A stretch of DNA of 64,000 nucleotides from Octopus vulgaris. Its lineage: Eukaryota. This document shows positions 12,165-21,276 of the stretch, in pieces (position 1 is the stretch's first letter; the number at the start of each line of letters is the position of its first letter). Below the pieces are notes generated by a model. It made no database searches and was not told the origin of the DNA. It saw nothing but the letters and a program-made list of their open reading frames with translations. The stretch covers positions 51,522,001 through 51,586,000 of the forward strand of contig OX597825.1 of the NCBI GenBank assembly GCA_951406725.2. The letters are read 5' to 3'. Made by a program: the position numbers and the translations under genes.

Positions 12165-13092
12165 GTAAATAAATAAATATAAACTACACCAAGTACAGGG
12201 CATCACAAATGAGTGAAAAATACGTAAACACGTGCGATAAGTACATGAAAAAATACAAAAAAATACACAATGCAAACAGGACATCACCAACGCGTGATAA
12301 ATATGTAAACACATAATGAGAGACAAGTACTGGACAAAATACCAAAGGAAGTCTAACTCCACCTCAGTTGTTGATTGTTGATTACTCCCTATTTCGCATT
12401 TTCAACGACAAGATAGGAAAACCTCATAAAACAGCGGCATCCAGAAATTCTAAAAATATAAAAACTGTGGAGAGTTCGAGCTTCGAACGAGCAAATAACG
12501 ACAGAATGGACGTACGGAGTAAACAATCGACGAATACAAACATTAAGAACCGTTAGGTCAAGACACATTGTAATGGGAGAAATTTTGAAAGGATATAGAA
12601 TAAATAGAAGAAAATAGTAGAAGAGAGAAAAAGAGAAAAAATGTCGTGAGGCGAGCAAAATGACGTGCAGCCTAATGCACGTCGCGTTCAGAAAAGACAG
12701 AGGTAGAACAAAAAGGCCTGTGGAAGCAAACAGGCAGGGGAGAAGGGAGACAAGAGAGAGGATGAAGGAAAAACCAGAGGGGGGTGATTAGAAGGGAGAA
12801 AGAACGAAGGATTGTAAGGGGTGGAAGATAGACAGTGGACAGCAAAGAAGGGGAGAAACGGAAAATAAAGAGGATTGTAGAGGAATAGTGAGAAAGAAAC
12901 ACAGAAAGAAAGAAAGGGAAGAGAAAGTAGAGTCGCAGAAATTACAAATAGAAGGAAAATTTTACTGTGGACGAGGATTCGTGGTGTTCGATTATGAATA
13001 AATAGATATAAGATACAACAAGTACAGGTCATCACCAACGTGTGAAAAATACGTAAACACACGGGCGAGAAGTACAGGACGAAGTACCCCAA
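12165..13092 (-). mobile_element. Non-coding ~0.83 kb-period element with diverged terminal direct repeats, a structured RNA motif and a GA-rich interior (family C)
   Basis: About 12168-12250 is repeated at about 12996-13085 (aataaata.atataa..taca.caagtacagg.catcac.aa.g.gtgaaaaatacgtaaacac). Purine-rich interior at about 12600-12960. Motif at 12348-12484. Confidence 0.65.
12348..12484 (-). ncRNA. Putative permuted hammerhead-like structured RNA motif (family C copy)
   Basis: Minus: uuccua-UC-uugucguugaaaaugC-GAAA-uagggaguaaucaacaau-caacaa-CUGAGGU. The loop is 16 nt and the spacer 18 nt. uugucg/caacaa pair at 5 of 6 positions. Confidence 0.45.
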
Positions 13093-13269
13093 AAAATGTG
13101 TAACGTTTTCTCTTGTATTCTACTGTATATTTGTAGAATGATACATTTAGGAGCTTTCTTATGAGTACTACAAGATTACTTGAATCCATATATTGTGACT
13201 TAGATGTATATGTGTGTGTGCGCGCGTGCGTGCACGTGCGTTCGTGCGTGCGTGTATATATATATATAA

Positions 13270-14364
13270 TATTCCTTTCAACTGTGCGATACAATCGGAT
13301 ATACAGAACAAATTCAAAGTAATTCTGGAAAAAAATTTCCCTATCTCTCATAGATATCATAGAATTATTTTTAGGAAAACAGTTAGGATTTCTTATTCAA
13401 CCCTCCCAAATATGTCCACTTTAATAGCTAAGATTAATAATAACAACATTAAACTAGCCAGGAAAGATAGAAATAAAAATAATAATATCAGCATGAATAC
13501 CAATAGCAATTATAATAATACTACCAACAATAAAAACAGCAATAGTAACTATCAAAACATAGGTGAAATTAGTAACCACAGAATGACTAATAACATTAAC
13601 ATTAATAGTAATAATAACAATACCGATATTAATAGAAGTAATAATGTTAATAATAGAAATAATAGAAATAAGGCTAATGGAGAAAATAAGGAGAATGAAA
13701 ATATCAGTGATATCTATAACAACAATATACAGTCGGATAAAAAGACTAACAATAATAGTAACATTACCAATAATATAAGAAATCATGGTAGGACTTTAGA
13801 CCTAAATGATGAAATAGAAGGACCAATAAATAATAGCAATACTTTAGATACCAGCACCAACTATAGAAATGATAATCAAAATAATAGGAACCTAAGACAT
13901 CTACCCAGGAATAATCTAAAGCCTGAAGTTGTTCCTCCTGTGTGTAAGTGTAGAATAAAATCAAAATGCCCGGCACCTGGTCTATGTGGGGAAAATAATT
14001 AATCTATAAATGTACCATATCCACGGAGAATAACAAATATTATTACATTGGATGTACAATTAATTTTTTAGCCAGAGTTAGAAATCACATCTCGTCTTTT
14101 AAATTACGTCATAAAGCTGGTACCACCACACTTTCAAACAAAATCTGGGAACTCAAAAATAATAATAATAATTATAACCTTAATTGGGAAATAGTTAGGA
14201 GAGCAATTCCGTATAAAAATAGTAGGGTTGGTTGCCAACTATGCTCCATGGAGACGTATGAAATTCTAAAGCATAGAAAACATAGAAACTTATTGAATAA
14301 CCATATCGAACTAGGTCAAGTTTGTGTCCACGCTAAATTGAAGACTTTAAAATATTTTAAATGA
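13270..14364 (+). pseudogene. PLE ORF C-terminal part: RT thumb, Asn-rich linker, Cys motif, GIY-YIG endonuclease (one frameshift near 13999)
   Basis: IPFNCAIQSDIQNKFKVILEKNFP..H..I..KTVRISYSTLPNM...CKCRIKSKCPAPGLC. Then from 13999 in the -1 frame: LIYKCTISTENNKYYYIGCTINFLARVRNHISSFK..TTLSNKIWELK..NWEIVRRAIPY..CQLCSMETYEI..LLN..E...CVH, ending TGA at 14362-14364. The motif layout resembles Naiad/Neptune-type PLEs. Confidence 0.9.
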
Positions 14365-15404
14365 TTAGAATATTCGTAACTAGATAGATAGATATAACTT
14401 GATTTCTACTAGTATAGCACTGCTTTAAGTAGATAACTAAGAGTTCTCACACTACAGTTATCTTTTTCCTTATATCTGCATCAGTTGTTTGAGAACAGGG
14501 AAATGAATAGTACTTATACGCTGCTTAATTGAGACTTTATTTAATTTCAAACTCATAATTTTAAATTCTTAATTTTAAATCTTAATTGTGATTTTTAATT
14601 TTAATTCCTAACTTAATCTAATTTAAGTAGCATAACTCTAATAAAATAAAATGAGTTACTATAGCCCCATAATTCTATTTCAAAATTAAATAAATAAGGC
14701 TACTCCCTCGGTGATAATATGATTATCTTCATTATGATAGACAATCCCCTAACACCATGTAAATGATCTTCTAAGATTTGACCTGTAGTCCGTCATTGTA
14801 TGAATAATAAAGGCAACTCCTTAAGACAATATAATGAATAAATTAAATAAGTAAACTTTAATGACTTTTTGATAAGATTATACTTAGATTTTCCTAATGT
14901 ATTTTCTTTTGATTTTAGCATCTGACCCCTAAACCCCTGACTGTGTTATCTCTTTAGATTCTCTTTAAATTCATAGCTGATTTCAACAGCAATAAATTAG
15001 CTGTGTTACTGGTCAAAGAATAATATTCTCCTCTAGTTCCTAGATGCCTGTAAATTAAAACCAGACTTGCCGTCTACTAATTCTTCTGTATAACTAGAAC
15101 CCTCTTTTTTCTTTTTTTTCTTTTTCTTTTTTTCCCTTCTTTCCCTATTTCTTTCTCTTTCTCTTTTTTCTTTTTCTTCTTCCTATTCTCTTTTTCCTTT
15201 TCTCTTCTCTTTTAGTCCCCCTCCCCCCCTTTTTGCTCCCTCCTCCTTTATTTTCTCTCTTTTCTTCTATTCCCTTCCCTTTTCTATTCTTTGCCTCTCT
15301 AGAAAGCCCTTCAGCCTTTAAAAGTTAAATAGCTACAGCCTCTTGTGAGTAGCAGTAATGTGATTAATGTGGCAAATACCTAATCATATAACAAGAACTG
15401 ATAC

Positions 15405-15685
15405 CTACCTCATTGTGTTCAACCATTGATAAATTTATCGCCTGTGAATATGAAATTCCTCTTCATTTCTCTGGAAATTTACATCTACACCATTGGAAAT
15501 TGTGCATCTATACAAAGGATTAATTCACCCTCTCTGTAATGCTAATAAGCAGGAATTGAAACCCACCTTGTTGTGATTAACAATGGATAAATTTGTCGTC
15601 TGTGAGTATGTAATACCTCATCATATCTCTGGAAATTCATATGTGCACTATGGATTAGGTCACCTTCTCTGTGATGCTATTAAAA
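15405..15685 (+). repeat. Diverged tandem duplication (~160 bp period) in the PLE 3' UTR
   Basis: aac.at.gataaattt.tcg.ctgtga.tatg.aat.cctc.tcat.tctctggaaatt and cacc.tctctgt.atgcta.taa each occur twice. Confidence 0.8.
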
Positions 15686-15829
15686 CTTTTCTAAAATTCT
15701 GTGATAAGACTGTACATCATCTTTAAAGAACTTTAATGAACTTTGGAAATCTGTTTATGTTACTTAATTATCTACATTACTTCATGAGTATAGCCTCAAC
15801 CAATAGGATGTCTAGAGAACTCACATGTA

Positions 15830-19977: not shown

Positions 19978-20165
19978 GAAGGTTGAAAGGGAACACACGA
20001 GTTGAGATATATGGAACAAAAGTCAGGATAGAAAATGCTAAAATAATTTCTTTTAATTTTTCCAAAATTTAATTGTTTTCCATAATTACAGTTGAAATTA
20101 TGAATGAAATGTTTTTTTTTATAAAATTATTTTAGCATTTTCTATCTTGACTTTTTTTCCATATA
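19978..20165. repeat. Inverted pair of PLE termini (same family as 63166-63340)
   Basis: 20008-20049 is the reverse complement of 20124-20165, and both match 63181-63240. Confidence 0.85.
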
Positions 20166-20283
20166 CATATATACATATATATATATATATATATATATAT
20201 ATATATATGTAAAAGTAAAAAAATATACAAACTGGGACAAGAACGTGAAACATTTAGAAGACGACACAAAAAACACGGACGGG

Positions 20284-20429
20284 ACATTCGAAGCCTTCAA
20301 TCTTCAGTCAAGAACCGGATCATCTTCGCAATTTCGGCTGATTAATCTTGAGATTGCTCCGACCTGGGCAGCCCCAAAGGAAAATCTAAGCCAAGCGCAT
20401 TAGATTCCTTGGAAGAAAGCCTCGAATGT
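20284..20429 (-). ncRNA. Putative permuted hammerhead-like structured RNA motif (family A, copy 1)
   Basis: Minus: 15-bp outer stem acauucgaggcuuuc/gaaggcuucgaaugu, whose G-U pairs fix the strand. Inside: ggcug...gcaa-UC-ucaagauuaaucagcC-GAAA-uugcgaagaugauccggu-ucuuga-CUGAAGA. Confidence 0.55.
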
Positions 20430-21130
20430 ATACAAAACAAGGACGGAAAACGGACGATGTTACACGAATAAAAATACAAAAATGTGTAAAAACAATAATG
20501 ATAGCACGAATAAGAATACAAAATACGTAAAAACAATAATGATAATAATAATAACAAAACCAGGACGTCAAAGACAAGCGTCTTTTTGACAGGACGAGTA
20601 TAGTTTTGAGCTGGCTATAGAAGAGTCACTTAAGGCCACAGCGAGGCAAACAAGTGTGTCTTACCACAATGACTGCTGGACGCGAAAAGGCAGTAGTCGG
20701 TGGCTGGTCATGTGAGGAAAAAAGAGAGGAAAAAGAGGGACAGATGAGGAGAGAAAGAAGGGGAACAAGGAACAAAGGAGGAGAAGAAAGAGAGGGAAAG
20801 AGACAGATCAAGTGGAGTGTAAGGTGTGAGAGGCAGAGAAATGTAGGAGAGGGTGACATATGAAGAGAGAAAGAAGGGGAACAAGGGAGGAGAAGAAAGA
20901 GAGAGAAAGAGACAGATCAAGGGGAGTGCAAAGTGTGAAGGCAGAGAAATGTAGGAGAGGGGGGAGAGACAGTGTTGTAGAGTCGTACCATGTGTTAAAG
21001 AATATATACTTACGTATAGGGTTAAAAAGGGGTACGTAGTCGCTTATGTACATATGTAAAAGTAAAAAAATATACAAACTGGGACAAGAACGTGAAACAT
21101 TTAGAAAATGACACAAAAAACACGGATGGG

Positions 21131-21276
21131 ACATTCGAAGCCATCAATCTTCAGTCAAGAACCGGATCATCTTCGCAATTTCGGCTGATTAATCTTGAGA
21201 TTGCTCCGACCTGGGCAGCCCCAAAGGAAAATCTAAGCCAAGCGCATTAGATTCCTTGGAAGAAAGCCTTGAATGT
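21131..21276 (-). ncRNA. Putative permuted hammerhead-like structured RNA motif (family A, copy 2)
   Basis: Same motif 847 bp away. The core elements are unchanged and the differences fall in the outer stem. Confidence 0.55.

Follow-up and report, generated by a model that had tools for sequence, protein, structure and literature searches.

A split hammerhead-type RNA fold with upstream stem II in small mobile repeats of Octopus vulgaris and in Naiad tails

Within a 64,000-nucleotide stretch of the Octopus vulgaris genome (GCA_951406725.2, contig OX597825.1, positions 51,522,001 to 51,586,000; hereafter the window), a sequence-only reading had proposed that three non-coding elements share one RNA architecture on the minus strand, interpreted as a hammerhead that is either non-circularly permuted or pseudoknotted, or else as a distinct RNA motif associated with Penelope-like elements (PLEs). 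The locus raises the question of whether a hammerhead can exist in a form that Eckert et al. 2023 (PMC10085705) assumed to be impossible, namely with its blocks interrupted.

Core, layout and occurrence of the motif

A descriptor consisting of stem III, UH, 16 nt, GAAA, 18 nt, a 6-bp stem I and CU matched the window exactly four times, all on the minus strand, and had no match on the plus strand. These are exactly the four sites at which the architecture had been reported, confirming that it is real, and they belong to three dispersed, (TA)n-inserted repeat families, here denoted A, B and C (Table 1). When the genome was searched, as the earlier reading had recommended, the motif proved far more frequent than expected by chance: CGAAA-N24-CTGANG occurs 16,770 times versus 2,404 for the reversed pattern, compared with 17,020 versus 11,814 for the neighbouring spacings 19–23 pooled. 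The hammerhead-type fold is present in more than ten thousand small mobile repeats of this genome. Relaxed scanning of loci, which were enriched because they had been fetched via the families or the pattern, revealed 75 motifs in 234 loci and none in the reversed sequence; a later relaxed scan revealed 100 motifs in 385 loci and none in either the reversed or the complemented sequence. The supposedly fixed 16/18 spacing is the commonest one (61/75 motifs), but spacings of 13/17, 13/18, 14/10, 14/18–20, 16/17 and 18/18 also occur. The proposed 6-bp pairing between the start of the loop and its downstream flank is complete (6/6 pairs) in most relatives but reaches 5/6 in the copy at 12412. No Rfam match was obtained at the four window sites.

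At the family level all core bases (CUGAnGA, GAAA and UH) are present, and family copies display the complete core, with the cleavage site first, GAAA second and CUGAnGA last. The window copies of families A and B contain broken cores (CUGAGGU and CUCAACA, respectively), which are decayed. Since other copies of these two families carry CUGAGGA and CUGAAGA, all three families possess the full core, and the initial impression that only one family does so had to be revised. Among 31 diverse motifs the core is conserved with N7 free (18 U, 8 A, 3 G and 2 C), and H17 is C, A or U. A widened core for family C, CUGA-N5-GA, was considered and dropped, N7 varying within CUGAnGA among subfamilies.

Sequence comparison revealed the layout 5'-[P0a]-[P1]-IIa-Xa-IIIa-UH-Ia-short linker-IIb-GAAA-IIIb-Xb-Ib-CUGAnGA-[P0b]-3', with covariation in stems I, II, III and X. 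In the diverse motifs, stems I, II and III surround the core with varied pairs, stem II being tested independently, as the descriptor itself required stems I, III and C11.1. Helix X comprises at least 4 bp in 21/25 motifs and begins -1 to 3 nt from the 6-nt stem II strand, and a kink-turn signature was found in 10/20 clusters and 0/11 metagenomic motifs. Helix P0 is weakly supported across families, surpassing a distant control in 16/20 but with z < -1.64 in only 3/20. Hairpin P1 is missing in some families.

Because every helix forms inside one copy, the dimer suggested previously is not needed. That blocks from two tandem copies or molecules build a classical three-way hammerhead, as in dimeric small PLE hammerheads, would fit the tandem arrangement of family C and the existence of dimeric PLE hammerheads (known from a title cited within PMC10085705). 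However, such an assembly is extremely improbable, given that about 70 nt of a single copy suffice to close every helix, that stems I and II are held together by helix X and short linkers, and that each motif-bearing Naiad-like tail (see below) carries a single motif.

Table 1. Positions of the ribozyme-like domains and their parts in the window
Feature	Position	Strand	Remarks
Family C insertion, one complete non-coding unit and the 3' portion of another	20208..21377 (approximate)	minus	period 847 nt, (TA)n end
Outer helix P0, 5' strand	20415..20428	minus	predicted 14 bp with 20285-20298, -17.5 kcal/mol
Outer helix P0, 3' strand	20285..20298	minus	predicted pairing with 20415-20428
Hairpin P1 between P0 and stem II	20377..20411 (approximate)	minus	MFE fold
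Stem II 5' strand, upstream donor	20369..20373	minus	G10.1 = 20373
Connector helix X, 5' strand	20361..20367	minus	pairs with 20315-20321; counterpart of SGC stem I-II helix
Kink-turn GA, stem III 5' strand, U16.1, C17	20352..20359	minus	GA 20358-20359; C17 = 20352
Predicted cut	3' of 20352	minus	
Stem I 5' strand	20346..20351	minus	pairs with 20308-20313; descriptor
Stem II 3' strand, GAAA, stem III 3' strand	20328..20340	minus	20336-20340, 20332-20335 and 20328-20331, respectively
3-nt bulge and kink-turn GA, then helix X 3' strand	20315..20327	minus	
Stem I 3' strand and core CUGAAGA	20301..20313	minus	core 20301-20307
Second family C ribozyme domain	21131..21276	minus	99% identical; H17 = 21199, core 21148-21154
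Family B ribozyme domain	16132..16255	minus	decayed core in window copy; host element about 16035-17030
Family B parts		minus	stem II 5' strand 16209-16214, H17 = 16193, GAAA 16173-16176, core 16142-16148
Family A ribozyme domain	12348..12484	minus	A9 changed in window copy; host element about 12165-13075
Family A parts		minus	H17 = 12412, GAAA 12392-12395, core 12361-12367
Family A stem II partner, ambiguous		minus	upstream 12435-12441 with bulge, or strand after core

Stem II and the opening between A9 and G10.1

In all known alignments, A9 is linked to G10.1 directly or via 1–2 nt (passages of PMC10085705). This link is not found in the 31 diverse motifs, none of which forms 5 bp with the core-adjacent downstream strand, whereas in 25/31 an upstream strand supplies 5 bp or more of stem II; the opening in the chain therefore lies between A9 and G10.1. 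The pairing of an upstream segment with the bases before GAAA, noted in the window by the earlier reading, is thereby borne out. Swapping partners among the 31 motifs gave 0 of 20,000 for the upstream strand and 13,945 of 20,000 for the downstream one, and in 19 cluster representatives (4/23 clusters having been dropped, three for upstream truncation and one for another spacing) at least 5 bp were formed upstream in 12/19 and adjacent downstream in 1/19, again with 0 of 20,000 swaps, although these tests overstate independence because the families are related. Four to five pair types occur at each of stem II pairs 2–5 in the 31 motifs. In the set of 100 cores, stem II was upstream in 75/100 and downstream in 5/100.

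The S-G-C block order itself has already been published as type SGC (PMC10085705). As described there, HRIMA-1 and its variants likewise exhibit the S-G-C order, a full core, a short linker between stems I and II, and a helix that connects these stems at their far ends, as helix X does here. In contrast, their stem II 5' strand lies right after CUGAUGA(U), whereas here it precedes the cleavage site, and the uninterrupted block C of type SGC (stem I - CUGAnGA - stem II) is not found in the split motifs. These would be missed by the published SGC pattern, since it demands stem II after CUGAUGAG or CUGAUGAUG (PMC10085705). In the same work, type SGC was detected in metatranscriptomes only, with none found in the genomes of known organisms. 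If the octopus motifs were ordinary type SGC hammerheads, with stem II built from the strand after CUGAnGA, the upstream pairing would be an inhibitory alternative. Family A offers some grounds for this, as its downstream option, 5 bp with a 1-nt insertion as in HRIMA-1, fits about as well as the upstream one, and some families with 13–14-nt spacing make 4 bp downstream. Nevertheless, we consider it very improbable, since 4 bp are reached downstream in 4/31 diverse motifs and 5 bp in none, downstream pairing is no better than with swapped partners, and no intact type SGC was detected among 70 Naiad-like tails.

Type CSG, described from two metagenomic sequences (passages of PMC10085705), shares its cyclic block order with the split form but keeps block C intact; the window motifs themselves are not type CSG. 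Types SGC and CSG and the split form may represent three openings of a single closed S-G-C ring. In the split form, the RNA would enter and exit between A9 and G10.1, helix P0 would re-close the gap, and the kink-turn would bend stem III back onto helix X in about half of the local families. In the literature consulted, mostly open-access, we found neither a natural hammerhead lacking the A9-G10.1 backbone link nor a description of the fold in Naiads, and passages of PMC3088659, PMC6155905 and PMC6765202 describe neither a Naiad fold nor a natural A9/G10.1 break.

Copy ends at the predicted cleavage site

The fold likely cleaves itself, because truncated copies accumulate with their 5' ends at the predicted cut. 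Among TA-joined 5' ends, 46/50 sites mapped to +1..+7 (19 of them to +1/+2) versus 4 to 0..-5, in a tally made by hand from the initial 100 rows out of 1,350 (binomial p of about 5e-9). Unselected copies began at +1..+16 in 21/52 cases versus 9 across -7..-120. This 5'-end step indirectly suggests cleavage 3' of H17 in vivo. At the opposite end, family C copies stop at a fixed point about 145–154 nt past the cut, beyond which (TA)n or (CA)n follows: 55/58 terminal copies finish at +143..+154. A TA run was located 3' of the copy in 41/70. Family C is a head-to-tail unit without ORF, with periods of 697–867 nt; its tandems show an upstream motif piece in 17/30 loci, and one 4-copy tandem array was found. 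Many copies extend uncut through the site.

In known hammerhead structures, A9 stacks on G10.1, and an opened core could therefore cost activity. The fold might be hammerhead-derived but catalytically lost, acting as a protein-binding or RT-positioning platform, with the 5'-end step caused by RT stalling on structure. The opening of the core at a stacked position and the many copies passing through the site uncut would agree with this, as would the report that PLE ribozyme activity is dispensable and protein-assisted, cleavage being dispensable for in vitro insertion by another PLE (PMC11167929). We nonetheless judge the loss of catalysis unlikely: the catalytic bases, the free N7 and a non-G H17 are kept across unrelated carriers, and the 5' ends step up at the scissile bond, peaking at +1/+2, where no helix would be left to stop the RT, as the partners of Ia and IIIa would already have been copied.

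Under the self-cleaving model, cleavage would be partial, with cut RNA giving copies that begin at or just past +1, and uncut or re-ligated RNA giving copies that read through the ribozyme. A PLE RT/endonuclease would initiate at an internal position some 150 nt past the cut, with insertion at (TA)n. The young family C could be moved by a Naiad or by an intact C-terminal-endonuclease PLE family of the same genome.

Naiad carriers and the reach of the fold

According to Craig et al. 2021 (PMC8557442), canonical hammerheads are missing from Naiads, and 'HHR_core' and 'HHR_half_core' bases in them were noted there as fitting no descriptor. In O. vulgaris the fold sits on the sense strand behind a Naiad RT. 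The Naiad_Obim/Ovul-type 3' end occurred 433 times (control 0), 11/29 loci of the Naiad ORF end had a G..C block downstream on the same strand, and two loci, L360 and L361, showed YIDD RT remnants upstream of the block. An N-terminal GIY-YIG match was present in 11/17 long homologues of that RT. The Naiad domain order, N-terminal GIY-YIG and C-terminal RT, is found only in these sister carriers, the family C unit of the window having no ORF; upstream of most short copies no ORF was found either. Neither a word-based search of proteins nor an initial metagenome scan with a 141-aa RT fragment gave a match. Searching for the GIY-YIG family retrieved no Naiads; what it yielded were canonical PLEs with a C-terminal endonuclease and ordinary type I hammerheads.

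Among 70 metagenomic Naiad-like tails, 11 carried the split form and 2 type CSG, with none in the antisense or reversed controls. The remaining 57/70 had no motif under the descriptor (3 were near-CSG by eye), and the fold is thus not universal to Naiads. Rfam gave no match in 20 Naiad-like loci. In passages of the published Naiad consensi, the split layout was recognized by eye in 9 and type CSG in 6.

Insertion at (TA)n, tandem and truncated copies, and the tail position of the motif are common to the window elements and Naiad PLEs (passages of PMC8557442, which propose no fold), whereas the window elements lack an ORF; the (TA)n trait is also shared by canonical PLEs of the same genome. The repeats further resemble non-LTR retrozymes, which are PLE-end-derived, non-coding head-to-tail units with one hammerhead each (bioRxiv 10.64898/2026.07.22.740005; see also PMC7229834). 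This likeness concerns the DNA units, and non-LTR retrozymes and canonical PLEs use type I hammerheads (bioRxiv 10.64898/2026.07.22.740005), in contrast to the S-G-C order here. The small non-coding repeats likely descend from Naiad PLEs. We hold with good confidence that Naiad tails and the derived repeats contain hammerhead folds of S-G-C order with upstream stem II, likely self-cutting after UH, and the proposed permuted, pseudoknotted, PLE-associated hammerhead is supported.

It also seems reasonably probable, if less so, that this is a natural active hammerhead whose catalytic strand is split between A9 and G10.1, with an extra helix closing the gap again, that together with type CSG it constitutes the missing Naiad ribozyme across animal phyla, and that thousands of copies record its cut in vivo. 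If true, the split core would contradict the published view that none of the three hammerhead blocks can be interrupted, so that current descriptors and Rfam models would miss a whole class, and it would add a permutation beyond the six thought possible. Three closed stems with a fourth exit helix would offer a new scaffold for switches. Non-circular permutations would move from anonymous environmental contigs to animal genomes, with more than ten thousand copies, type CSG would gain a likely host, and the puzzle of the hammerhead-less Naiads would be answered, while the young, near-identical copies would allow tests of what cleavage contributes to PLE transposition.

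Block order and helices of the split-core motif

The descriptor proposed in the sequence-only reading matched at exactly four places in the window, all on the minus strand and belonging to three dispersed repeat families, A, B and C, and Rfam gave no match at these four sites. The rearranged, non-circularly permuted order claimed there, with the cleavage site (S) followed by GAAA (G) and CUGAnGA (C), is that of the published type SGC. According to the available part of Eckert et al. 2023 (PMC10085705), who named type SGC and showed that it cleaves, it turned up in metatranscriptomes only, and stem I–CUGAnGA–stem II was assumed not to be interruptible.

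The proposed pairing of an upstream segment with the bases before GAAA was borne out as stem II. Among 19 of 23 clusters (four were dropped), 12 representatives formed a stem II of at least 5 bp upstream of S and one directly 3' of the core, partner swapping giving 0/20,000 for the upstream helix. At the same threshold, 75 of 100 cores from 385 loci paired upstream versus 5 of 100 directly after the core, and with 11 metagenomic motifs added the counts were 25/31 versus 0/31, the downstream pairing of these 31 motifs not exceeding that of swapped partners. The upstream helices vary in sequence (e.g. GGCUGG/CCAGCC, GCCCAA/UUGGGC, GACACC/GGUGUC, GAAGGC/GCCUUC). Family A departs from this: its stem II requires a bulge when formed upstream, and the downstream strand pairs about equally well.

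The chain would accordingly be opened between A9 and G10.1. Because block C is interrupted in this split form, whereas type SGC keeps it uninterrupted, the split form is, judged from sequence, a new variant that falls outside type SGC. It would nevertheless work like a hammerhead, with a ring topology common to types SGC and CSG. A literature search, with most subscription papers outside its reach, found no account of such a fold.

A connector helix, X, the counterpart of the helix between stems I and II in type SGC, begins directly after the upstream 5' strand of stem II, and its partner stops just 5' of the 3' strand of stem I. Stem III and X are joined by a 3-nt bulge and tandem GA, a kink-turn signature (66/100 copies; 10/20 clusters; 0/11 metagenomic motifs) that accounts for the fixed 18-nt spacing. 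An outer helix, P0, lies after A9; it has 14 bp in family C, where it is compatible with the core, and is weakly supported across decayed families.

In the 2.8-Gb genome, which is rich in microsatellites, a first look gave 2,324 candidates for family C (best copies 98–100% identical), 570 for family A and 144 for family B. The full CUGANGA had been thought limited to one family; this did not hold, and since CUGAGGA and CUGAAGA stand in other copies of families A and B, the odd cores of their window copies are due to decay. Across the genome the pattern CGAAA-N24-CTGANG occurred 16,770 times versus 2,404 for its reverse, while GAAA-core spacings of 19–23, pooled, were enriched just 1.4-fold. 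A relaxed scan of 234 loci picked up 75 motifs, which fall into 23 clusters; the reversed sequence yielded none.

Features of the window
Feature	Position	Strand	Remarks
Descriptor match, family A	12412	-	predicted cleavage-site base
Split form, family B	16193	-	predicted cleavage-site base
Split form, family C	20352, 21199	-	predicted cleavage-site bases
TACGTAC / GTACGACTCT, family C	21038/20988	-	unit start, before pyrimidine tract
TACGTAC / GTACGACTCT, family B	16993/16941	-	unit start, before pyrimidine tract
Ordinary minimal type I hammerhead of Penelope-like end	15836-15930	+	long stem II insert
Same	34860	+	
Same	47642	+	
Same	~63235-63300	-	U3/A8 core
Decayed PLE coding remnant, C-terminal GIY-YIG	13199-14364	+	PF01541 (E 0.0017); flanked by families A and B
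LINE-type RT remnant	56884-57630	-	
Mariner transposase piece	41257-41637	+	
tRNA-like SINE head	18672-18741	+	
Inverted-repeat element	18300-18550		

Ends of family C and predicted cleavage

Family C is non-coding. Upstream of its 5' part, 30 loci showed either the previous unit's tail (17 loci with a motif piece) or a truncation, and the tandem period was 697–867 nt. A relative forms a four-copy tandem array with a period of ~720 nt (G000:C1:79499921-79502214). TACGTAC and GTACGACTCT, ~50 nt apart, are common to families C and B, which are otherwise unalike, and are possibly promoter or protein sites.

Twelve of 70 alignments continued into the next unit; in 55 of the remaining 58 the end fell between +143 and +154 relative to the predicted cut, in most cases with (TA)n or (CA)n following. 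This fixed 3' end fits an RT that starts internally, as demonstrated for another PLE (PMC11167929).

A pattern search for TA-joined 5' starts (100 of 1,350 rows listed, collapsed by hand to 50 sites) placed, among the matches listed, 46 sites at +1 to +7, including 19 at +1/+2, and four at 0 to -5 (p ~5e-9), the gap limit of the pattern slightly disfavouring upstream starts; direct junctions alone gave 35 downstream versus 3 upstream. Among 52 copies picked by the GAAA-core pattern alone, 21 began at +1 to +16, 9 at -7 to -120, and 22 reached further, two starts called -2 being +1 joined to TA.

A template with a cut, somewhat trimmed 5' end would produce the step seen at the scissile bond, which is ~16-fold. 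RT stalling is a poor explanation, since by the time RT gets to the cut site it would already have copied the partner strands. Under template cleavage, the two products would be held paired via P0, II, X and III; as other copies run through the site, cleavage is probably incomplete or undone by ligation. We consider it probable that the motif is an active split-core hammerhead.

Naiads and other carriers

Canonical hammerheads are absent from Naiads, PLEs with an N-terminal GIY-YIG, according to the available part of Craig et al. 2021 (PMC8557442), yet core or half-core bases were remarked there. In the accessible part of the 54 published consensi, nine passages showed the split layout by eye (Naiad_Obim, Naiad_Ovul and three Acropora elements by headers; four more placed by file position alone, among ctenophore, cnidarian or adjacent entries), and six an intact type CSG.

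In the octopus genome the Obim/Ovul-type tail occurred 433 times (control 0), and the motif lay downstream of the ORF end on the same strand at 11 of 29 loci, twice behind RT remnants with YIDD. The N-terminal GIY-YIG was found in 11 of 17 long homologues of this RT. Among 80 metagenomic loci from the Naiad alignment, 70 had at least 150 nt beyond the ORF match; 11 of these tails carried the split form and two type CSG (antisense 0, reversed 0). The other 57 (within L392-L465), some up to 3 kb long, lacked a hammerhead core, three being near-CSG by eye, and 18 gave no Rfam match; such tails may use another processing signal. Type-CSG hammerheads, near-CSG included, stand behind Naiad-like ORFs at metagenomic loci L425, L442, L414, L421 and L431. 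The sequences suggest that metagenomic CSG ribozymes come from Naiads.

Non-LTR retrozymes resemble the split-form carriers in layout and differ in ribozyme type. Naiads in this genome are decayed; a 781-aa PLE family with a C-terminal endonuclease and an ordinary hammerhead is intact. This young family (RT then GIY-YIG) is present at L301, L306 and numerous other loci, and its tail contains TGACGTC/ATTGGT repeats. It has a T-rich, (TA)n-joined 3' end in common with family C and is a candidate helper of young family C.
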